Part shown: positions 1-8,899 of the stretch, in pieces | Layout: each line of letters starts with the position of its first letter | Position numbering within the stretch: the stretch's first letter is position 1 | Virus record (IMG/VR): IMGVR_UViG_2600255005_000007 | Location: 1 to 8,899 of that record | Reading direction: 5' to 3' (one strand) | DNA from: a virus | Taxonomy: Duplodnaviria; Heunggongvirae; Uroviricota; Caudoviricetes | DNA: 8,899 nt | Program-made: the position numbers and the translations under genes | Notes under the pieces: generated by a model | Database searches by the model: none | What the model saw: only the letters and a program-made list of their open reading frames with translations | Told to the model about the DNA's origin: nothing

Positions 1-480
1 GTGATAAAGCGTGTTTTGCAGGCTGCGTTCGATGTCATCAACGCTGCGCCGCTGGCTGGCAGAGAGCGAGGCAATAAACGCTTCGGCTTTTTCCGGCGAC
101 TGCTGGCGATAAAGATTCGCCAGCCCGCGCACGGCGTTAGTGTTGCTACTGTCCATACGCAGCGTCTGCTGGTAATAGCGTTCAGCGGCGGGGTAATCTT
201 TGCGCGCCATCGCCACATCGCCCAGCCCCAGCACCGCATAGCTGTCGGCGTTATCGACATTGCGCGCCTGCTGGAACAGGCGTTCTGCCCGGTCGGGATT
301 ATTGGCTTTCAGCGCAGCATCGCCCTGCTGGATCGCCAGCCAGTAGCGATTCACCTTCAGCAGACTGTTCCATTTGTCGTTGTTGCTGCTGTGCGGATCC
401 AGCGCGAGGGCTTTTTCCAGATTCGCCACCGCATTAGCACGATCGCCATTCTGAGAATACGCCTGCCCCAGCGCCCCCGG
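1..480 (-). pseudogene. bcsC: Cellulose synthase operon protein C (BcsC) TPR-region fragment; 5' part of the gene missing (replaced by inserted DNA at about 480), 3' part continues beyond the window start
   Basis: Reverse-complement translation of 1-477 reads GALGQAYSQNGDRANAVANLEKALALDPHSSNNDKWNSLLKVNRYWLAIQQGDAALKANNPDRAERLFQQARNVDNADSYAVLGLGDVAMARKDYPAAERYYQQTLRMDSSNTNAVRGLANLYRQQSPEKAEAFIASLSASQRRSVDDIERSLQNTLYH, which I recognise as the TPR region of enterobacterial BcsC. Similarity stops at 478-483 and an in-frame stop follows at 496-498. Absent from the ORF track because the frame runs off the window edge. Confidence 0.7.
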
Positions 481-2088
481 AACGCGGCGAAAACATCAGA
501 GACGAATGCAGGTAACAGCGCGAAAGCGGCAGCTTCTTCAAAAACAGCCGCACAAAATGCAGCAACAGCGGCAGAACATTCAGAGACAAATGCCCGTGCG
601 TCAGAGGAAGCCTCCGCAGACAGTGAAGAGGCTTCCCGCCGTAATGCAGAGTCAGCCGCTGAAAATGCCGGAATCGCCACCACAAAAGCGCGGGAGGCCG
701 CAGCAGACGCAACAAAGGCCGGGCAGAAAAAGGATGAGGCTCTGTCGGCAGCGACACGAGCAGAAAAGGCGGCAGACCGCGCAGAAGCCGCAGCGGAAGT
801 GACTGCAGAGCCCTATGCGAATATAGTGCCGCCGCTGCCTGATGTATGGATACCGTTTAACGATACACTGGATATGATTACGGGGTTTTCGCCATCATAT
901 AAAAAGATTGTTATTGGTGACGATGAAATAACAATGCCAGGCGACAAGATTGTTAAGTTTAAACGTGCTTCAACAGCAACGTATATTAATAAGTCCGGCC
1001 AACTCAAGCTTGCTGAAGTTGATGAACCGCGATTTGAGCGCGATGGCTTATTGATTGAAGGACAGAGGACAAATTATCTGAGGAACTCAAATAAACCAGA
1101 CTCATGGACTGTTCATTCCGCACTGAATAAAACATTTGGCACTGATAAACAGGGGTTCAATTATGCCACGGTGACACCCACGGAAAGTATAGTGGGAACA
1201 ACAGGTGGCTATACTGTGCATGGTGTGGTTGCAGCAGACAGATTCCCGCTGGCAAGTGGTGAATGTTTCACTTTTTCGTGCCGGGTTAAAGGCGCTAAAG
1301 CACGATGCAGGTTAAGAGTTTCAGTTATTATTGGTGGAACAGATACATTCTCTGCTGACTCTTATCTTGATCTGGATACCCGGATCGCAACAGTAAGCGG
1401 TAATACATCCCTTATAACAGCCAAAGCTGAACAACAGGGCGAGTGGACCTACTATGAGGCCACTTATACAGCTAATACGGACATTGATACCGTTAACTGT
1501 GCTTTTTATATGACAAATAAAATAAGTAATGAGCCATTCTATGATGACTCAACATTAACCATGACGACGCCGCAAATTGAACTGGGCAATACGGCATCGT
1601 CATTTATTGTAACTACAATGCCAACAACACGCGCAAGTGATGTGGTTACTATCCCATCGCAGAATAACCTGTCAACACGGCCTTTTACGGTATTGTGCGA
1701 AGTAAGCAGGAACTGGAGTACACCGCCCAATGTTGCGCCAAGGATATTTGATGTTGGAGGGCACAGTATTGATGATAATTATTTATCGCTGGGGTTTGTT
1801 TCAACAGGAAAGATAAGCGCCAACGTAGGAATGGTTCAGCCACAAATTTCCTCAGATGGAGAAAGGTTCATTGTGGGTGTGAGAGCTAAATCTGATTTAT
1901 CAGTAAATGCAATATGCAGTGGTAATTATACAACAAACCTTAATGGTAAAATATTTGGAGTTACAGCAACATCGTACCGGTTTGGTGGGCAGACCGCAGC
2001 AGGAACGCGTCATTTGTTTGGACACATCAGAAATTTCAGAGTCTGGTTTAAAGAATTAAATGACAGGCAAATCAAGGAGGCAGTATGA
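481..2088 (+). CDS. Phage side tail fibre protein, shaft repeats plus C-terminal receptor-binding region; 5'-truncated and fused in frame to antisense bcsC sequence (ORF 1..2088)
   Basis: From about 490 the + frame gives Ser/Ala/Glu-rich SETNA-type repeats (SETNAGNSAKAAASSKTAAQNAATAAEHSETNARASEEASADSEEASRRNAESAAEN...) typical of lambdoid side-tail-fibre shafts, then about 430 aa ending in FGHIRNFRVWFKELNDRQIKE (2017-2085), which resembles the C-terminal motif of concanavalin-A/LamG-like lectin domains. No N-terminal tail-attachment domain is present. The first 160 codons of the ORF are antisense bcsC and not fibre sequence. Confidence 0.7.
   Translation, partial: NAAKTSETNAGNSAKAAASSKTAAQNAATAAEHSETNARASEEASADSEEASRRNAESAAENAGIATTKAREAAADATKAGQKKDEALSAATRAEKAADRAEAAAEVTAEPYANIVPPLPDVWIPFNDTLDMITGFSPSYKKIVIGDDEITMPGDKIVKFKRASTATYINKSGQLKLAEVDEPRFERDGLLIEGQRTNYLRNSNKPDSWTVHSALNKTFGTDKQGFNYATVTPTESIVGTTGGYTVHGVVAADRFPLASGECFTFSCRVKGAKARCRLRVSVIIGGTDTFSADSYLDLDTRIATVSGNTSLITAKAEQQGEWTYYEATYTANTDIDTVNCAFYMTNKISNEPFYDDSTLTMTTPQIELGNTASSFIVTTMPTTRASDVVTIPSQNNLSTRPFTVLCEVSRNWSTPPNVAPRIFDVGGHSIDDNYLSLGFVSTGKISANVGMVQPQISSDGERFIVGVRAKSDLSVNAICSGNYTTNLNGKIFGVTATSYRFGGQTAAGTRHLFGHIRNFRVWFKELNDRQIKEAV
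2074..2080 (+). promoter_or_regulatory. Shine-Dalgarno AAGGAGG for ORF 2085..2363
   Basis: AAGGAGG 4 nt upstream of ATG 2085; the ATG overlaps the fibre stop (ATGA 2085-2088), suggesting translational coupling. Confidence 0.55.
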
Positions 2089-2363
2089 AAGATTTAACTT
2101 TGAAATTTCCTGGTAACAGAGAGTTTAAATCCTTCCTGTCATCTCTTGACTGGGAGGAAGATGAAGACCTCCAGAATAAACTGTTAGTCGATGAAATTGG
2201 TTTCACCTACACAGAAACAGGGGTAACTGAAGAGGGAGAACCTGTCTGTATCCGGAATAACGGTTATTTTGTCAACATTCGCATTCTTGATGACTTGTTT
2301 GATGTTTCTGTATTCTCTGATTATGTCGTGGAGCTGGAAACACCGCTTCGGGAATGGAGCTGA
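2085..2363 (+). CDS. Hypothetical small acidic protein (92 aa) coupled to the tail fibre gene
   Basis: Complete ORF with strong SD and start overlapping the upstream stop. Asp/Glu-rich. No similarity to classic Tfa tail-fibre assembly proteins that I can recognise. Confidence 0.55.
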   Translation: MKDLTLKFPGNREFKSFLSSLDWEEDEDLQNKLLVDEIGFTYTETGVTEEGEPVCIRNNGYFVNIRILDDLFDVSVFSDYVVELETPLREWS

Positions 2364-2370
2364 AAGGAGG
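2364..2370 (+). promoter_or_regulatory. Shine-Dalgarno AAGGAGG for ORF 2376..2669
   Basis: AAGGAGG followed by 5 nt spacer and ATG 2376. Confidence 0.55.
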
Positions 2371-2375
2371 AAATA

Positions 2376-2669
2376 ATGGATATAAGCCCCTTACTTCATG
2401 CACTTTGTGCTGTGGCTGCGCAGATACTGGTTGGTCTTTTTACCGGAAACTGGGCTTACGGAGCGATAGCCGGTTGTACGTTCTTCATTGCGCGTGAACA
2501 TACCCAGGCAGAATATCGCTGGATTGAAATGTTCGGGCATGGCAAGCGAATGAATATGCCGTGGTGGGGCGGATTTGATCCGCGCGCGTGGGATGTGGCA
2601 AGCCTGATGGATTTTGCTGTGCCGGTGGTGGCGTGTCTGCTGGTCTGGCTGTTGGTTAATCGTGGGTGA
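2376..2669 (+). CDS. Hypothetical small membrane protein (97 aa, two predicted hydrophobic helices)
   Basis: Strong SD; hydrophobic stretches LLHALCAVAAQILVGLFTGNWAYGAIAGCTFFIA and LMDFAVPVVACLLVWLLV; lies 12 nt after the previous ORF. Confidence 0.5.
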   Translation: MDISPLLHALCAVAAQILVGLFTGNWAYGAIAGCTFFIAREHTQAEYRWIEMFGHGKRMNMPWWGGFDPRAWDVASLMDFAVPVVACLLVWLLVNRG

Positions 2670-2700
2670 AAAAAGGTGGGCTGTATATGCAACGGAGGAA

Positions 2701-3033
2701 GAAACCCGGGAGAAAGCGCGGATACAGAAACCGGGTGCCTGTCACATCTTCCGGCACTCGATGGCAACGCAGATGCTGGACAACGGCGCAGACACGCGGC
2801 ACATCCAGGCGATCCTCGGCCATGAGAAGCTGGAGACGACGCAGATCTACACGCGGGTAGCCATCGGTCACTTACAGGAAGTTCACGCGCTGACGCACCC
2901 GGAAGAGCAGGACGAGACGTGGACGGATCGGCACGTTGCGGATGCGGTGGCAGAGCCGCAGACGCGCCGGGAGCGTAATCACGCAGAGATGGAGCGGGCG
3001 CTGGTCAGCAGGAAACGCCGCCGGAGACGCTGA
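2701..3033 (+). pseudogene. Tyrosine recombinase (phage integrase / XerCD-like) C-terminal fragment, 5'-truncated
   Basis: Translation ETREKARIQKPGACHIFRHSMATQMLDNGADTRHIQAILGHEKLETTQIYTRVAIGHLQEVHALTHP matches the C-terminal catalytic box of tyrosine recombinases (H-x-x-R-H, LGH, TTQIYT with the catalytic Tyr). No N-terminal or core-binding domain lies upstream, where fibre-associated ORFs sit instead. The reported ORF 2614..3033 begins inside the previous gene in another frame. Confidence 0.55.
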
Positions 3034-3993
3034 TGCAGGCCGGAAGCGTGATCATCGCCGGACTGCCTGAAAAGTTAGCGGGCGATCCCTGTAAGGCCGT
3101 GGGGTGAGGTGCAGGGCAGACAACCGCCTTCCCTGGCGGTTGACTGCCCCCTGCCAGCGGAGTGCGCGGGGGTAAATGCCGTTCGCCCCGTGGAGGCAGG
3201 CGTGTCCCATGCGGCCACGGCGCACGGGGCAAACGTCATTCAACATAATGCGGGGGATTATGCGCACTCTCGCCGGGTGGCAACGGCGGCGAACCCGACC
3301 CGCTGTGCGCGGCTCGTGTTCGCACAATCCGCATTATGTCTTGCGCCCCCGCGTTCAGCCCCTTAACCAGTGCCACGCGCAGCAGCTCGCTGGCGCTCGC
3401 TCCTGCCGTCTCAGCGGCGGTGTCCTTCCTCAGCGCCGCAGTCGCCGCCATCCCTGGCGGCTCCGGTGCCGTTCTGCGGCGGCGTCATCGTGTGGCAGTC
3501 AGTCAGAAAAGGGTGTCGGCCTGGCGGCCTCCGCTTGTAAGGGCTTTATGCCCGCCCGGCGTCGTCTGGCTGCGGCGGCTCGTGCCGCGCAAAAAGGCCG
3601 CGCGTCACTCGTTCCCGCCTCGCCAGCTTCCGCTGCCCGCCCCGGTCCGGTGTGGTCATGCAAAGGCCAGCTCCGGTCAGGCAGCGGTGCCACAGAGCGC
3701 CGTTCCGTCGCTTGCGGACTCTCTGCCGCCCGCACCCGCAGACCCCGCGCCGTGGCCCCGCCATGCCGCCGGAGGCGGCCTGGCGGCCCCCCGTCACGGG
3801 TTGCCGGAAACGGACTTAGTGGAAAGCGGAATGACAGGTTCGTGGCGGTGGTGATATGGTGAGCGGGCGTGAAAACGCGCGTCGGGAAAGCCGGGTTAAC
3901 GTGCTGTTAAATAATTAAAAGGTGATAGCCGTGAAGCCAGAAACGGCGCGGGCGGTAGCGTGTTAAAAAGTATGACCCGCACCGGATCGTCCC

Positions 3994-4401
3994 GATGACC
4001 CGATAGGGCTGAGAGGCGGATTAAACTTATACCAATACGCGCCTAATCCAGTAAACTGGATCGATCCTTTGGGTTTGAAATGTGGGCAACCTGAATGGAC
4101 AAATCATGGATACAAACATTTTCCTCCAAAAAACAAATCATGGAAGGATATAATTAAATCAACAAAATCAGGCCCGGCAAAATATTCTCCAGATATTGAT
4201 ATTAAAACGTTGGAATACGATGTTTTTAATACAGGCACACCTGTTACGAACGGTAAACCATGGAAAGTAAAAGATATGGGAAAAGTTATTGGGGCCAGTG
4301 AGGGTAAAGAATCTCAATGGGTTCGAGTTGAACTTAGCGGTGGGACAATACATGGACATCCTATATCAATCGATGAATTCCGAAGGCTAACAACATCATG
4401 A
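3994..4401 (+). CDS. Orphan Rhs C-terminal toxin module 1 (core-end [27 protein letters not shown] at 3997-4077 plus about 105 aa toxin domain of unassigned family); no start codon, no upstream core
   Basis: Frame opens after TGA 3973-3975. Conserved Rhs core-end peptide, then [15 protein letters not shown]...[19 protein letters not shown]. First in-frame ATG lies deep inside the domain; the ORF track start at 4069 is a TTG. Confidence 0.65.
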
Positions 4402-4691
4402 ACATTGATTTCTTAGGAAAAAAAGGGAATATAGTTTTTAATGACTTCTCCCTGAAACAAAGCATCCCTCTTAATGAACAGCGAGATGAACTTAAGGAAG
4501 ATATGCTCCAGGTTGAATATCCTGGTGGGTATCTTTTGGATGTTGGGTGGCGACCATCTTTTGATATAAATGGGAAGTTTTATATTTGTTTAATAAAGGA
4601 TTTTGATTGGGATTATCCCATTTATAATGGTTCTGCGAAAGATATTGTCTCATTATTATTTGAAATTAACCAAGCTATAAATAAACTTTAA
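4398..4691 (+). CDS. Putative immunity protein for Rhs-CT 1 (97 aa)
   Basis: ATG overlaps toxin stop (ATGA 4398-4401); AT-rich small ORF directly downstream of a polymorphic toxin domain; followed by a terminator hairpin. Confidence 0.6.
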
Positions 4692-4707
4692 ATAAACTTT
4701 AAAAAAA

Positions 4708-4746
4708 CTGGGAAGAAAATTAAATCTTCCCGGCTTTTTATTATTT
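4708..4746. terminator. Bidirectional intrinsic terminator between convergent immunity gene 1 and SymE-like gene 1
   Basis: Stem CTGGGAAGA (4708-4716) / TCTTCCCGG (4725-4733) with 8 nt loop, followed by CTTTTTATTATTT on + strand and preceded by AAAAAAA (a T-tract on the minus strand). Confidence 0.55.
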
Positions 4747-5006
4747 AACTCTCGTTCAGCACACTAAACATCCCGTTCCGCATCCCCTTAACCGCCTGTT
4801 TGACCTGGTAAAGTTCCCTGCGCAGTTCCTGTACTTCGTTGTTATCCGCTAGCAGGATCAGGCAACCTTCCGAGATCTTCACGGTAACGCCCGTGCCGAT
4901 CTCAAATCCCGCTTCTCTCAGCCATTTGGCGCTGATTTTGATCACCGGCGTGTCGCTTCGGTTGGGCAGATAGCCCACGGTACAGTGGCGCTGTGTTTTG
5001 GAAATG
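4719..5006. repeat. Direct repeat copy A (about 288 bp), carrying part of the terminator and the SymE-like ORF
   Basis: 4719-5006 aligns with 7311-7599 at roughly 97 percent identity by eye (a handful of substitutions and one extra T). Similarity ends abruptly after ...GTTTTGGAAATG. Confidence 0.8.
4745..4978 (-). CDS. SymE-family (type I toxin SymE-like, AbrB/SpoVT-fold) protein, probably 5'-truncated
   Basis: Translation GYLPNRSDTPVIKISAKWLREAGFEIGTGVTVKISEGCLILLADNNEVQELRRELYQVKQ aligns with the conserved core of E. coli SymE (TV.Y...P.I...WL..AGF..GT.V.VK..EGC..L) as I recall it. Starts at GTG with no SD; frame is open upstream to a stop at 5063-5065 with no ATG. Confidence 0.6.
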   Translation of the reverse strand: MGYLPNRSDTPVIKISAKWLREAGFEIGTGVTVKISEGCLILLADNNEVQELRRELYQVKQAVKGMRNGMFSVLNES

Positions 5007-5171
5007 ATATTTTTGTATTTAACCTGCTGATTAGATAGTAAAATAAACTTCGTGCAGATAGCTTACTTTGTCAGGGTGTGGCGGTAGCGTATGAACTATG
5101 ACGTGATGGTTTTAGTGATTTATAGACGAAACTGACAGTACGATCCGGACTTCGATTAGATTGCGCGATTT

Positions 5172-5621
5172 GACCCGATAGGGCTGGCGGGGGGGCTGAA
5201 TCTTTATCAGTATGCGCCGAATCCGTTAAACTGGATCGATCCGCTTGGATTAAGTTGCTCTAGTGATGCAAAAAAATTATCTGGTAATTTAGGATCAGCA
5301 CCAAGTAGTCACTATCGACCACATCATATGGTTATGTCTAATTCCAGCGATGTGCGTATGCGGTGGTTACGTAGAAGGATGGATCGGTTAGGTATAGATA
5401 TAAACGATTCCAAAAATGGTGTATGGCTACCCAAAAACTCTGATTATCGGTTACCGGGGACAAAAGCTACTGCTCATGGTGGTGAAGGTGTACATGGAAA
5501 TGCATATAAACAACATGTGTGGGATACGTTGAAAAATGCAAGAACAAAAGCTGATTTTGAAGCAGGGCTTGCGCAACTTAAAGTAGAGCTAAGTACTGGC
5601 AAAACGTTTCCTGTCCAATAA
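5172..5621 (+). CDS. Orphan Rhs C-terminal toxin module 2 (core-end [27 protein letters not shown] at 5172-5252 plus HNH/AHH-type nuclease-like domain); no start codon at 5' end
   Basis: Frame opens after TAG 5157-5159. Domain contains PHHMV (HH at 5322-5327), NGVWLP (5415-5432) and [14 protein letters not shown], matching the His-His...Asn...His layout of AHH-family HNH-fold toxins. The ORF track start at 5328 is the Met inside the HHM motif. Confidence 0.65.
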
Positions 5622-5625
5622 GGAG
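5620..5625 (+). promoter_or_regulatory. Shine-Dalgarno AAGGAG for immunity gene 2
   Basis: AAGGAG, 9 nt spacer, ATG 5635; the SD overlaps the toxin stop TAA 5619-5621. Confidence 0.5.
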
Positions 5626-5634
5626 TATGATCAC

Positions 5635-6252
5635 ATGAAAGATTTTCTGAAAAGTTTATATGAAGATTACAATGGAAAGTATTCGGAACTGATAGAACAG
5701 ATGAACGGAGAAAAGGCTACTTGTAGATGGGGGTATGGTGTTATGCCTGCCTTCTCTATAGAACCTTATGCATCCGAGCTTTTAGGTCATAAACCGGGAC
5801 GAATGTTGAAAAATAACTCAATCGCAGGAGTAAATAAACAATGCTATTATGTTGATGAACAAAACAGGATAATAGAAGGAATTACATACGCCAGCCATCG
5901 TAAGAAAGATAATGAATGGATTGTGTATAGAAATTTTTATATTTACCAAGAAAATACCATTCTTGGGCTTTTGTATAGTAGTACATTTGAAGATAGTAAA
6001 AACACAGGATTGAATAAGATTGTATTTATAAGCATTGATAATAAATTAATAAATAATAAGTATACTTTCATGTATGATGGGGAGTATTCTGAGGTAGATT
6101 ATATTTATAATAAAGATAAAATAATAAAAATAGACCAAAGGGTATGGTCTTCGTTTTATTTTGAACGCACTTATCTGATAGAGTCAAATGATCCATTGAT
6201 TATTAATGAATACTTAGAAAATAGTGGGAACATCAGGATCTACCCTACTTAA
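5635..6252 (+). CDS. Putative immunity protein for Rhs-CT 2 (205 aa)
   Basis: Complete ORF with good SD immediately after the toxin domain; visibly AT-rich relative to flanking DNA. Confidence 0.6.
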   Translation: MKDFLKSLYEDYNGKYSELIEQMNGEKATCRWGYGVMPAFSIEPYASELLGHKPGRMLKNNSIAGVNKQCYYVDEQNRIIEGITYASHRKKDNEWIVYRNFYIYQENTILGLLYSSTFEDSKNTGLNKIVFISIDNKLINNKYTFMYDGEYSEVDYIYNKDKIIKIDQRVWSSFYFERTYLIESNDPLIINEYLENSGNIRIYPT

Positions 6253-6357
6253 TTTATCAAAGTAAGAGACTAATATATGGACTATGATGCGGCTGTTTCA
6301 GGGATATGCGATTGAAGCCAGTAGTATGATCCTGCGATGGGGTAGATTCACCGTCCT

Positions 6358-6801
6358 GATCCGATAGGGCTGGCGGGGGGAATAAACCTCTATGCTTATG
6401 CGCCGAATCCAGTAAACCACATTGATCCTCTTGGGCTATCTTGTGGAAAGGTTGGTAACGTTGAATATCGTAATTTTGAGCGTTCTCCGGGAATGTTTTC
6501 TCGGTTATTAAAGAATAAACGTGACTTTGATTATGTTGCCAGATATAACATCTCAAGATATAAAGCTACATTGAGAAAAAATAATCCGGATGGTTTTGGT
6601 AATATTAGCCATTATTTCGATGGTGTAGATGCAAAAGGAAATAAAGTCGTTATTGAGGTGGCGAATACAGGGCATAAATCTTCAAGCGGTGGTTTTGAGC
6701 CTCCACATATTAAAATTCAAATAAAAGACGCTGATAACAAAGTGATACATAATGCCAAATATTTTTTGGAAGATGATATATATAGAATTACGGGCAAATA
6801 A
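6358..6801 (+). CDS. Orphan Rhs C-terminal toxin module 3 (core-end [27 protein letters not shown] at 6358-6438 plus about 120 aa toxin domain of unassigned family); no start codon at 5' end
   Basis: Frame opens after TAG 6343-6345. Domain SCGKVGNVEYRNFERSPGMFSRLLKNKRDFDYVARYNISRYKATLRKNNPDGFGNISHYFDGVDAKGNKVVIEVANTGHKSSSGGFEPPHIKIQIKDADNKVIHNAKYFLEDDIYRITGK. The ORF track start at 6493 is an internal Met. Confidence 0.65.
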   Translation, partial: DPIGLAGGINLYAYAPNPVNHIDPLGLSCGKVGNVEYRNFERSPGMFSRLLKNKRDFDYVARYNISRYKATLRKNNPDGFGNISHYFDGVDAKGNKVVIEVANTGHKSSSGGFEPPHIKIQIKDADNKVIHNAKYFLEDDIYRITGK

Positions 6802-7260
6802 ATGAAAAATATTAGAGAGTTAAATAATGCAGAATTCTCCGGGCTTATTAACAATGCTTTACCATTCTTACATATTAATCCTATAAGCGAAGCTGTTTGT
6901 ATTCATGCAGAAGCTTATAAAAGTGGTATTGATGTTAACTATATCCGTTGCAACGTTGACTGGGAGGGGTTTTCTTCTTTAACTGAAGCGTTGGAAACGT
7001 TATACCATGAATTATTTAAAGATGGTATTCCATCAGGCGAATTGTTGTTTTTTTACCCGTTTGATAGAACAAAGAAAGGGAATTATGGTGTTATACTGGA
7101 ATCATCTCAGCTATTAGATTTCTTAATAAAAGAGCATTTGAAGATTTATCCTGAATGTTTTAATGTAGAAATGTGTAGCTTCGGTTTTTATTTTATAGAT
7201 CACGAAATATTTTACGGCATGGAACATCCTGATTTTTTATATAGTTTCTGTGTAAGATAA
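6802..7260 (+). CDS. Putative immunity protein for Rhs-CT 3 (152 aa)
   Basis: ATG immediately follows the toxin stop (TAA-ATG at 6799-6804); AT-rich; followed by a terminator hairpin. Confidence 0.6.
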   Translation: MKNIRELNNAEFSGLINNALPFLHINPISEAVCIHAEAYKSGIDVNYIRCNVDWEGFSSLTEALETLYHELFKDGIPSGELLFFYPFDRTKKGNYGVILESSQLLDFLIKEHLKIYPECFNVEMCSFGFYFIDHEIFYGMEHPDFLYSFCVR

Positions 7261-7296
7261 TTAATAAAGTGAGGAGTATATTTCTCTTTCTTAATC

Positions 7297-7335
7297 GCCG
7301 GGAAAGGTAGATTAAATCTTCCCGGCTTTTTTATT
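7297..7335 (+). terminator. Intrinsic terminator after immunity gene 3
   Basis: Perfect 8 bp stem GCCGGGAA (7297-7304) / TTCCCGGC (7319-7326) followed by TTTTTTATT. No T-tract in the minus-strand direction. Confidence 0.55.
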
Positions 7336-7599
7336 ATTTAACGTTCGTTCAGCACACTAAACATCCCGTCCCGCATCCCCTTAACAGCCTGTTTAACCTG
7401 ATAAAGTTCCCTGCGCAGTTCCTGTACTTCGTTGTTATCCGCTAGCAGGATCAGGCAACCTTCCGAGATCTTCACGGTAACGCCCGTGCCGATCTCAAAT
7501 CCCGCTTCTCTCAGCCATTTGGCGCTGATTTTGATCACCGGCGTGTCGCTGCGGTTGGGCAGATAGCCCACGGTACAGTGGCGCTGTGTTTTGGAAATG
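7311..7599. repeat. Direct repeat copy B (about 289 bp), partner of 4719-5006
   Basis: See copy A. The right end abuts GC-rich primase-like sequence at 7599/7600. Confidence 0.8.
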
Positions 7600-7619
7600 G
7601 TGGGCCGCACTGCTGGCAC
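7338..7619 (-). CDS. SymE-family toxin-like protein, copy 2; the N-terminal 10 codons come from unrelated sequence beyond the repeat boundary
   Basis: Near-identical to copy 1 over the shared part (ISKTQRHCTVGYLPNRSDTPVIKISAKWLREAGFEIGTGVTVKISEGCLILLADNNEVQELRRELYQVKQAVKGMRDGMFSVLNER). The ORF start at 7619 is a GTG lying antisense inside the primase-like region, with no SD. Confidence 0.55.
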   Translation of the reverse strand: MPAVRPTISKTQRHCTVGYLPNRSDTPVIKISAKWLREAGFEIGTGVTVKISEGCLILLADNNEVQELRRELYQVKQAVKGMRDGMFSVLNER

Positions 7620-8899
7620 ACGGCGTCAGGCAGGTACTGATCGCCTACGACAACGATCCGGCGGGCAATGAGGCGGCGGTGAAACTGGCTTCTTCCTTAG
7701 CCGCTTCCGGGATCGCCACGTTCCGCGTACTGTTCCCGGCGGGCATGGATGCGAACGGTTATCTGTGCAGTGTGGCAGAGCCGGAACAGGCGTTCAGTCT
7801 GTTGCTGGATGGCGCGGTGCCCATGAGTGACCTGGCCGATGCGGAGAGTATCGCGCCGCAGGCCAGCGCGGAGCCTGCACACCTGACTTCATTAGCTGCC
7901 GGGGTTGCGGTCTTACCCGCAGCCGCCGCGCCTGCACCGGGCGTCAGCGTGGAAACCCTGGCCGATGGCGAACTGATGGTAGCCTTACCCGGCGAACGCT
8001 GGACTATCAGGGGCGTAAGCCGCAAACCGAACGTCGCCGCGATGAAGGTCAATGCGCAGGTGCTGGACACCAACAGCGGCGTGGTGTTCGCTGATGCGGT
8101 GGATATGATGAGCGCCCGCAGCCGTTCCGGTTATGCGCGGGCCGCAGCGGCAGAGCTTGGGCTTGCCGAAGGCGACCTGCGCCGTTCGCTGGGTAAGGTG
8201 CTGCTGGCGCTGGAGCACTGGCAGGCGGCACCGGAGCCGGAGAGCGTCGCCCCGGAGATGACGCCGGAAGATCGGGAGGCGGCGCTGGATCTGCTGCGCG
8301 ACGAGTGTCTTGCCGGGCGCATCGCTTCTGATATGGCGGCGTGTGGCGTGGTGGGTGAGTCCACCAACCTGACGGCGGCGTATCTGGCGGCGGTGTCACG
8401 CAAACTGGAGCGCCCGCTTGCCGTTCTCATCCAGTCGTCGAGCGCGGCGGGTAAGTCCAGCTTAATGGATGCGGTGCTCAATCTGATCCCGCCAGAGGAA
8501 CGGCTGCAATACAGCGCCATGACCGGGCAGAGCCTGTTCTACCTCGGCGAAACCAACCTGCAACACAAGATCCTCGCCATCGCAGAAGAAGAAGGTGTGC
8601 GCCAGGCGGCGTATGCGCTGAAACTGTTGCAATCAGACGGGGAACTGACCATCGCCAGTACGGGCAAGGACGACGCCAGCGGCAACCTGGTCACCAAACA
8701 GTACACGGTGAAAGGCCCGGTGATGCTGATGCTGACCACCACGGCGATCGACGTCGATGAAGAACTGTTAAACCGCTGCCTGGTGCTGACGGTGAACGAG
8801 TCGCGGGAGCAGACGGAGGCCGAACTGCTCTTTAACAATTTATCAGACAATCTGTGTGGGCACTCGAAGATACGGATTCTTAACGTCCTCGGACGATAA
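7600..8899 (+). CDS. Toprim-domain primase-like protein with downstream P-loop-like region, N-terminally truncated at the repeat junction (integrative/conjugative-element type replication or mobilisation protein)
   Basis: VLIAYDNDPAGNEAAVKL resembles the Toprim DxD motif region; a Walker-A-like SSSAAGKSSL follows after an Ala/Pro-rich linker. GC-rich coding sequence with good third-position GC bias. The conserved Toprim Glu region expected upstream is missing. The reported start at 7586 is a GTG inside the SymE repeat. Confidence 0.55.

Follow-up and report, generated by a model that had tools for sequence, protein, structure and literature searches.

Overall organization of the locus

We analyzed a stretch of 8,899 nucleotides, referred to below as the window, which corresponds to positions 1–8,899 of the IMG/VR virus record IMGVR_UViG_2600255005_000007 (Caudoviricetes). 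Its central part carries three cassettes, each composed of the conserved end of an Rhs core (the core-end), an in-frame C-terminal toxin tip (CT1 to CT3) and a downstream open reading frame (ORF) for a putative immunity protein (imm1 to imm3). On either side of the cassettes stands one copy of a GC-rich backbone of ~6 kb, in which a symE gene and a gene for a helix-turn-helix (HTH) repressor, both on the minus strand, are followed on the plus strand by a 983-residue primase gene, a XerC-like tyrosine recombinase gene and a spacer of ~960 bp. Of these two copies, the window retains the last third of the first recombinase with the complete spacer behind it, the central part of the second primase and the two symE genes (Table 1). 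An earlier note on this DNA, made from the sequence alone, had described an array of three orphan modules without a full-length rhs gene upstream; the cassettes it described are real, but the symE-HTH-primase-XerC-like backbone with dif-like sites that lies on both sides had been missed.

Orphan rhs tips and putative immunity genes

Each cassette starts with the 27-residue peptide DPIGLxGGxNLYxYAPNPxNxIDPLGL. A back-translated pattern of this peptide, run over the whole window, matches three times without mismatch, exclusively on the plus strand, while none of 200 dinucleotide-preserving shuffles of the window contains a match and none is expected by chance. The earlier note had taken these segments for Rhs core-ends, and the profile search agrees: all three align to positions 49–76 of the 76 positions of NCBIfam TIGR03696 (Rhs_assc_core), i.e., to its last 28, both DPxGL motifs included, with scores of 34.5, 33.6 and 32.1 bits, the first two above and the third just below the curated cut-off of 32.5 bits. 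The segments have neither a start codon at their 5' end nor a YD-repeat core, again as described there. Indeed, the closest in-frame stop codon is found 7, 4 and 4 codons upstream of core-ends 1, 2 and 3, respectively, with no ATG, GTG or TTG in between, and a tblastn-type search of the window revealed no YD/RHS-repeat sequence. In DNA, the three 81-bp core-end copies are 73–75% identical to one another. Among the Escherichia copies, the first 14 nucleotides of the core-end (3997–4011 region, GAYCCGATAGGGCT) are near-invariant even at synonymous positions and include an ATA codon, which is rare in E. coli; the remainder of the 81 bp varies freely at synonymous sites, and other genera use other codons.

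The three tips that follow are mutually unrelated in profile and homology searches, in agreement with the claim that a different C-terminal domain stands after each core-end. CT1 matches residues 1426–1529 of PDB entry 8QJC, the "core and toxin" of a Salmonella bongori PAAR-Rhs protein, with an E-value of 9.9e-63. An RNase fold has been predicted for the S. bongori toxin by the depositors of this entry (bioRxiv 10.1101/2024.02.26.582050), and CT1 is likewise a predicted RNase-type toxin. It is also found after a partial rhs core in E. coli A36, where it is accompanied by imm1 at 90% identity. CT2 scores 41.8 bits against Pfam PF14412 (AHH; gathering cut-off 22.3 bits, E 1.2e-10) and is a predicted AHH-type nuclease, the motif reading by eye PHH, not AHH. 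Five E. coli genomes carry it, together with its downstream ORF, as an orphan of 93% identity at the rhsC locus; its close relatives are short proteins of 81–209 residues, none of them borne on a full-length Rhs.

CT3 shares 59% of its amino acids with the tip of WP_341857516, a full-length Rhs protein of 1557 residues encoded in a vgrG-DcrB-rhs locus of E. coli 21F61. Its relatives are few: an exhaustive search among 1.8 billion representative proteins returned five, and a word-index search gave no match and no family assignment. An AlphaFold model of the single sequence reached a predicted local distance difference test score (pLDDT) of 52, too low for a meaningful fold search, and the assignment of a fold was dropped. 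The product of imm3 is 30% identical (E 4e-16) to that of the ORF downstream of the WP_341857516 gene, so that the two pairs combine a conserved toxin with a faster-evolving partner, as is usual for toxin/immunity pairs. The same tip is therefore present on a full-length Rhs elsewhere for both CT1 (S. bongori, 8QJC) and CT3 (E. coli 21F61).

The three downstream ORFs start where the earlier note had placed them: in an ATGA overlap at 4398, at an ATG preceded by AGGAG at 5635 and in a TAAATG junction at 6799–6804. They are AT-rich, as stated, with GC contents of 0.27–0.38. No match to a known family was found for any of them in Pfam, NCBIfam and further family searches, and their position and co-inheritance with the tips suggest an immunity role. 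Own promoters for the immunity genes, which the earlier note had taken as expressible on their own, were considered and dropped, as promoter-like sites are not enriched between 3800 and 7700 (10 found, 12.1 expected), though the ribosome-binding context is present. Terminator-like sites are enriched in the same interval (10 found versus 3.2 expected), including a bidirectional one between imm1 and symE. With the core-end profile, the CT1 homolog on a PAAR-Rhs, the CT3 homolog on a full-length Rhs and the AHH domain of CT2, the reading as orphan modules of the rhs-CT/immunity type holds; the three segments are genuine but ordinary members of this class.

The recombinase-primase backbone and its dif-like sites

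The recombinase fragment is recognized by Pfam Phage_integrase (E 2e-13) and by the XerC subfamily model NF002331 of NCBIfam (E 1.5e-40), and tblastn aligns it at 92% to residues 256–362 of E. coli XerC. The full-length protein of Escherichia ruysiae carries the Phage_integrase and SAM-like N-terminal domains. The spacer that follows the recombinase gene is 820–1089 bp long, with a GC content of 0.58–0.67, in 37 copies from several genera, and no single reading frame is conserved in it. A protein or a known RNA was rejected as its product: ORF conservation extends over several frames and both strands, which points to conservation at the DNA level, and Rfam is empty there. The best-conserved block of the spacer, at ~3717–3746 (GGACTCTCTGCCGCCCGCACCCGCAGACCCC), has a mean column identity of 0.85 across genera and shows no obvious symmetry or coding potential.

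The spacer contains two dif-like sites in inverted orientation. A canonical Xer/dif-type site has 28 bp, made up of two 11-bp arms and a 6-bp center; we confirmed the dif site of E. coli K-12 as GGTGCGCATAATGTATATTATGTTAAAT. When compared with the reverse complement of E. coli dif, each arm of site 1 agrees at 10 of its 11 positions, and this arm pattern is expected 0 times by chance. Its center is longer than the canonical one in the window, while one E. coli copy of the site has a 6-nt center. The arms of site 2 are more degenerate (8/11 and 6/11). Such sites are restricted to the spacers, one pair per backbone, and none was found in the 81-bp core-end; use of the rhs core-end as an attachment site by XerC, considered because the right junction abuts the DPIGL codons, was given up as the main model on these grounds. 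Across 24 diverse loci, from Escherichia to Xenorhabdus, the conserved pair of sites forms a 20-bp interrupted inverted repeat, with compensatory changes in seven of the 24 pairs. This covariation could reflect base-pairing, or merely two sites fitting the same protein.

Downstream of the recombinase, all genera, from Escherichia to Xenorhabdus, share a conserved stretch of ~30 nt just before the DPxGL codon, AAAGTAyGAy...CCtaa/GAyCC (the slash marks the start of the core-end), often ending in a stop codon. This junction reads as a shortened, frameshifted remnant of the last part of an rhs core (YDxxTGxxIxP). The junctions before core-ends 2 and 3 are variants of the same remnant, joined to the truncated symE gene or straight to the preceding immunity gene, and because of this resemblance CT2 and CT3 look like cassettes whose backbone was deleted. 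The junction leading into core-end 2 is also present in arrays at the E. coli rhsC locus. In every orphan only the final 27 codons are intact and in frame, the sequence just upstream being decayed.

Table 1 Features of the window, in order of position
Feature	Position	Strand	Remarks
bcsC fragment	13–481		~94% identical to E. coli
Prophage tail-fibre and assembly region	479–2707		98.9% identical
XerC-like tyrosine recombinase, 3' fragment	2706–3033	+	~residues 256–366; N-terminal two thirds cut off by the break at 2706
Backbone spacer	3034–3996	+	GC ~67%, no convincing ORF; ends in the conserved ~30-nt junction (3967–3996) abutting the DPIGL codons
dif-like site 1	3238–3268	-	ATTCAACATAA TGCGGGGGA TTATGCGCACT (arm, center, arm); 9-nt center instead of 6
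dif-like site 2	3318–3345	+	TGTTCGCACAA TCCGCA TTATGTCTTGC (arm, center, arm); 6-nt center; inverted relative to site 1
Orphan 1, core-end (3997–4077) and in-frame CT1	3997–4401	+	107 residues after DPLGL; TIGR03696 E 2.2e-8; PDB 8QJC match
Putative imm1	4398–4691	+	97 residues; start overlaps CT1 stop (ATGA)
Bidirectional intrinsic terminator	4708–4733	.	between imm1 and symE; right half ATTAAATCTTCCCGGCTTTTT recurs at 7311–7331
5'-truncated symE-family type I toxin gene	4745–4978	-	77 residues; Pfam SymE_toxin E 2.5e-11; homology to intact copy ends at 5006
Junction remnant, decayed rhs core end	5007–5171	+	frameshifted YDPxxG, stop codons; leads into core-end 2
Orphan 2, core-end (5172–5252) and CT2	5172–5621	+	predicted AHH (HNH/EndoVII) nuclease domain, PF14412; TIGR03696 E 4.1e-8
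Putative imm2	5635–6252	+	205 residues; AGGAG 9 nt upstream; co-conserved with CT2
Junction remnant, decayed rhs core end	6253–6357	+	before core-end 3
Orphan 3, core-end (6358–6438) and CT3	6358–6801	+	120-residue CT3; TIGR03696 E 1.3e-7
Putative imm3	6802–7260	+	152 residues; TAA-ATG junction with CT3
Second symE-family gene	7338–7619	-	Pfam SymE_toxin E 7.9e-15
Primase (CHC2-zinc-finger/Toprim), internal fragment	7602–8821	+	~residues 290–695 of 983; Toprim_2 E 6e-8; tblastn 95%

The two symE copies are 97% identical over 272 nt. The 5' end of the second is cut at the 7602 breakpoint, so that the first codons of its listed ORF are unrelated sequence. Antisense to both genes, on the plus strand (4575–5008 and 7057–7601), Rfam gives sub-threshold matches to Ssr1, a Shigella small RNA (265 versus 820 bits), and to isrA of Salmonella (34 versus 51 bits); these would be consistent with an antisense RNA of the SymR kind or else with transcription running on from the cassette operon.

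Make-up of the window and the matching locus in Escherichia ruysiae

The window proved to be a patchwork. Positions 2706–7602, with all three cassettes, are 99.98% identical to and collinear with a contig of E. ruysiae (NZ_CABVLQ010000001, locus L006), and positions 7602–8821 are 100% identical to positions 17167–18386 of the same locus. At 7602, 1497 bp are absent relative to E. ruysiae, i.e., the HTH gene and the 5' end of the primase gene. The breakpoints at 2706, 7602 and 8821 are clean, without repeats or insertion sequences, and a further join lies at 481. A 695-residue "ORF" at 1–2088 spans one of the joins. The last 78 bases (8822–8899) are presumably the leader of an rRNA operon (rrn). 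In E. coli IH5 (CP168949), region 1–29253 of a "complete" chromosome consists almost wholly of truncated, unrelated gene fragments, including a piece of the XerC-like recombinase, and is probably a mis-assembly in the same style.

In E. ruysiae the locus reads, in order: DcrB, a 1550-residue Rhs, an Rhs immunity ORF, symE and HTH on the minus strand, the 983-residue primase, a 366-residue XerC-like recombinase, the ~960-bp spacer, CT1/imm1, the truncated symE, CT2/imm2, CT3/imm3, and again symE, HTH, primase and XerC. The 1550-residue protein carries RHS_repeat (E 1.5e-77) and PAAR_motif (E 6e-9) and is encoded 6.6 kb upstream in the contig. The earlier statement that no full-length rhs gene lies upstream is thus correct for the window, because the window is a patchwork broken at 2706, but fails for the locus, where DcrB and the PAAR-Rhs gene stand upstream.

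The isolation of the array, with its truncated recombinase and its primase without 5' end, is probably an artefact of assembly or sequence construction and, as such, biologically uninformative. Unrelated pieces (bcsC, prophage tail fibre, the 3' end of xerC, an internal primase fragment) are joined at the clean breakpoints, and the E. coli IH5 assembly is similarly scrambled. An artefact of this kind touches the flanks only, as the segment 2706–7602 is found collinear in an independent assembly.

Distribution of the backbone

The recombinase with its spacer is present in 56 of 5426 complete E. coli genomes (1%), in a median of four copies and up to six. In E. coli the backbone sits at an rhsE-type locus (ansP...pptA) and at the rhsC locus (kdp-ybfA...ybgA), at both directly behind the full-length rhs gene and its immunity gene. 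An rhs-linked symE flank was detected in 220 E. coli genomes, versus 56 with the recombinase, and neither solo spacers nor landing pads were seen in E. coli, the spacer always occurring with XerC.

A scan of one genome per species retrieved 68 loci. The backbone was found in ten genera: Escherichia, Citrobacter, Scandinavium, Pectobacterium, Dickeya, Brenneria, Edaphovirga, Serratia, Photorhabdus and Xenorhabdus; one extra locus comes from a metagenome-assembled genome labeled Bacillota. The arrangement is largely constant. The primase gene stands directly upstream of 51 of 62 recombinase genes, an Rhs core-end follows XerC at 800–1200 bp in 32/54 copies and within 3.5 kb in 39/54, and a long Rhs core is located 3.5–7 kb upstream in 18/35. 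Tandem arrays have a period of ~6.6–7.8 kb. In Xenorhabdus and Photorhabdus, the XerC family found here has members of 50–66% identity to it, with the same synteny behind rhs.

The base composition of the parts is independent of the host. In a comparison that took in loci L006, L013, L045, L054, L063, L073 and others, GC contents are 0.54–0.63 for the rhs core (11 of 12 loci, the exception being Serratia silvae with 0.47), 0.58–0.64 for the backbone and 0.31–0.40 for the cargo. The genomes of Xenorhabdus and Photorhabdus are themselves AT-rich. The composition shared by rhs core and backbone suggests a common origin or a shared constraint.

Possible mobility of backbone and cargo

Backbones within one array are 66–100% identical, and some arrays hold pairs that are only 66–71% identical, which points to separate acquisitions. 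The opposite case is found in Xenorhabdus japonica (L063), where two backbones of 5955 bp (6110–12064 and 12848–18802) are 99.5% identical and flank unrelated CT/imm pairs; the repeat homology begins ~150 bp ahead of symE, and its other limit coincides exactly with the end of the 81-bp core-end. A related arrangement is carried by the IncFII plasmid CP074171 of Enterobacter sp. JBIWA003, which contains, at 113–21015, at least three tandem units of HTH, primase (~54% identical), XerC and DinJ/RelE. In both complete units these genes are followed by two "adhesin"-annotated ORFs starting at a VVENN motif, small hydrophobic ORFs and a dif-like pair. The VENN motif marks the boundary of CdiA tips, and the units have the appearance of orphan cdiA-CT/cdiI cassettes borne by a relative of the backbone. 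Two circular "plasmid" records, of Shigella flexneri (CP055112, 8758 bp) and Lonsdalea populi (CP072857, 11289 bp), are made solely of backbone-cassette units, one of them with two core-ends. They are excised circles or else assembler artefacts of tandem repeats, and were not retained as proof of excision; the contigs of the Lonsdalea draft assembly are simply short.

The explanation that we favor, with a probability of roughly 0.65, is that the window holds orphan cassettes of E. ruysiae type, derived from a type VI secretion system (T6SS) PAAR-Rhs locus of this species or a near relative, which lie between backbones of a Xer element. From the anatomy, the synteny in ten genera, the mixed tandem arrays, the AT-rich cargo and the VENN-carrying relative we infer that the element is mobilized by its Xer system. 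Backbone and cargo would together make up a circle, whose insertion and excision at the dif-like sites would be the work of the Xer-like recombinase, and insertion at spacer sites would add new toxin/immunity cassettes downstream of the resident rhs. The toxin of such a cassette would be silent, having no start codon and stop codons just upstream, and what would keep the cassette in place is its immunity gene and the prospect of a new tip. To load the tip onto the full-length rhs, a second crossover, within the 81-bp core-end, would be required, an event expected to be rare in this genome. Alternatively, one homologous crossover at the core-end might suffice to integrate a whole circle, with the Xer system only resolving multimers. 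In a wider version, which we consider tentative and on balance rather doubtful, the cassettes would be cargo of widespread, previously unrecognized GC-rich elements of ~7–8 kb, integrative and possibly self-replicating, that ferry polymorphic-toxin tips; equipped with symE, a repressor, a primase, an inverted dif pair resembling that of CTX and a Xer recombinase of their own, they would cut the tips at DPxGL (Rhs) or VENN (CdiA).

Several observations weigh against the favored explanation. No excision or integration product was observed, and no external target (attB) outside an existing spacer was found. DNA folding of 3228–3356 gave a hairpin no more stable than those of shuffled sequences (z = -1.6), and this unexceptional energy leaves covariation as the sole support for a hairpin structure. 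Since the dif-like sites are not at the core-end, the joining of the first cassette to a full-length rhs cannot be accounted for by Xer recombination alone. Both backbones of the window are truncated and CT2 and CT3 have no backbone of their own; in E. coli, where Rhs orphans are common, most orphan arrays lack it too, given the 56 genomes in which recombinase and spacer occur. No recognizable transfer genes or functions were identified in the element, and no relatives in viral contigs; carriage by a phage was set aside for the latter reason and for PHROGs matches that are to generic primase, integrase and repressor families. The XerC tree roughly tracks host taxonomy, similarity falling with host distance, and long residence would fit this pattern too. 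These last features, together with the geometry of the dif-like sites, inverted and ~50 nt apart, which suggests inversion or a hairpin and not excision, would suit a backbone that is a resident, domesticated part of Rhs loci, such as a local inversion switch or a relic of multimer resolution, and no vehicle of cassettes. We regard such a role as quite unlikely. It accords poorly with up to six copies per E. coli genome in only 1% of the genomes, with 66–71% divergent backbones within one array, with the occurrence at different rhs loci and on plasmids with CdiA-type cargo, and with a GC content that is foreign to AT-rich hosts. Moreover, a center-to-center distance of 80 nt is very short for the synapsis of two duplex sites.

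The array could also be explained without a role for recombinase and primase. In the model of the earlier note, the displaced tips form a silent reservoir that RecA-dependent recombination at the core-end reloads onto rhs, which would make both enzymes bystanders. In E. ruysiae, orphan and resident core-ends share 22–26 of 27 residues but just 54–61 of 81 nt (67–75%), with longest exact runs of 11–22 nt, a combination that reflects past selection at the protein level. The requirements of RecA make such short, diverged homology a poor substrate. Reloading therefore looks inefficient in this genome, and this part of the earlier interpretation is doubtful. It also leaves unexplained the fixed position of the backbone relative to rhs in ten genera and the junction that abuts the DPxGL codon. 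The model gains from the 27 codons that remain intact and in frame in all orphans while the sequence upstream has decayed, from the case of Salmonella, in which recombination with the main rhs can activate an orphan tip (Koskiniemi 2014, cited in PMC5727410), and from the E. coli copies, whose 81-bp segments are mosaics of long identical stretches followed by divergence, as internal crossovers would produce; crossovers inside this stretch thus occur on evolutionary time scales. As an account of the whole locus we nevertheless consider it unlikely. A more plausible view, though one we lean against, is that the array is maintained chiefly for poly-immunity, its immunity genes guarding against like toxins delivered by neighboring cells, or that it serves as toxin-antitoxin (TA) pairs expressed internally, with the toxin parts as incidental remnants. 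The three downstream ORFs are intact and have plausible start contexts, and CT/imm pairs are conserved as pairs in other genomes. XerC/D genes stand beside polyimmunity loci (Zhang et al. 2012, PMC3482391), poly-immunity arrays beside Rhs toxins, with nearby Xer-type systems, are attributed to Xenorhabdus and Photorhabdus (Martinkus 2026, as conveyed by bioRxiv 10.64898/2026.07.13.738213), and an orphan Rhs of Salmonella is able to act as a type II TA module (PMC7043789). The toxin ORFs are, on the other side, fully intact and in frame with the core-end, which selection on immunity alone would not maintain, and the lack of promoter enrichment noted above gives no help to this view. Poly-immunity is, in any case, compatible with the Xer-element explanation and not exclusive of it.

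Relation to known systems

In Enterobacteriaceae, both orphan tips of Rhs proteins and the displacement of their C-termini are established phenomena (Jackson et al. 2009, PMC2935791; Poole et al. 2011, PMC3150448; Koskiniemi et al. 2014; PMC5727410). Like classic orphan rhs-CT/rhsI modules, the present ones consist of a core-end without YD core or start codon, a polymorphic AT-rich tip and a small ORF for a putative immunity protein, and in E. ruysiae a GC-rich full-length rhs of the same orientation stands upstream of them. They differ in that intact core homology is limited to 81 bp, 67–75% identical to the resident gene, and in that a recombinase-primase backbone alternates with the cassettes. 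Jackson et al. 2009 (PMC2935791) remarked explicitly that no integrase was known to accompany rhs, and Rhs-associated integrase-like genes have been described in bee-gut bacteria by Steele et al. The Xenorhabdus/Photorhabdus poly-immunity arrays (Martinkus et al., Curr Biol 2026) reportedly come close, as the XerC family found here has members behind rhs in these genera. The searchable literature yielded no description of the primase/symE backbone, of its inverted dif pair or of the relatives with CdiA-type cargo; part of this ground may be covered by Martinkus et al. 2026.

Like the cassettes of integrons, the present ones are promoterless, share one orientation and are stacked next to a tyrosine recombinase. 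There are, however, no attC sites, the boundaries are rhs core-end remnants, and there is one recombinase per unit, not per array; integron-like capture was discarded, the recombinase scoring 61 bits against the NCBIfam integron integrase (cut-off 265 bits) and not being an IntI. The recombinase-associated acquired interbacterial defence (rAID) clusters of Bacteroidales (Ross et al. 2019) reportedly place a tyrosine recombinase by arrays of orphan immunity genes and toxin remnants. They belong to another phylum, with another recombinase that heads the array as a single gene, and are not known to involve a primase, a symE gene or a dif-like hairpin; in the present locus the toxin tips are intact. 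The attP(+) of CTXphi is reported to be a hairpin (Val et al. 2005) of two inverted dif-like sites that is integrated by Xer recombination. The inverted sites of the window, a few tens of nucleotides apart, can likewise pair into a Xer-type site with perfect arms and a mismatched, bulged center. In contrast to CTXphi, the element encodes its own Xer-like recombinase, sits at rhs loci and not at the chromosomal dif, and has no filamentous-phage genes; no single-stranded stage is known for it.

On the plain reading, the window adds one more ordinary orphan array, from E. ruysiae. It also calls for caution, as short orphan arrays are not necessarily ready-to-use reservoirs: the stretch of DNA shared here lacks the length and the identity that RecA would need for efficient exchange. 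The acquisition of new tips by Rhs and CdiA has so far been explained only through homologous recombination with DNA of unknown provenance, and the locus and its relatives provide a concrete candidate carrier with defined genes and sites. A family of tip-ferrying elements, if confirmed, would be the long-sought vehicle of C-terminal displacement. The more interesting part of the locus is the recombinase-primase context with its own dif-like sites, a companion of rhs across Enterobacterales that may carry in new tips.

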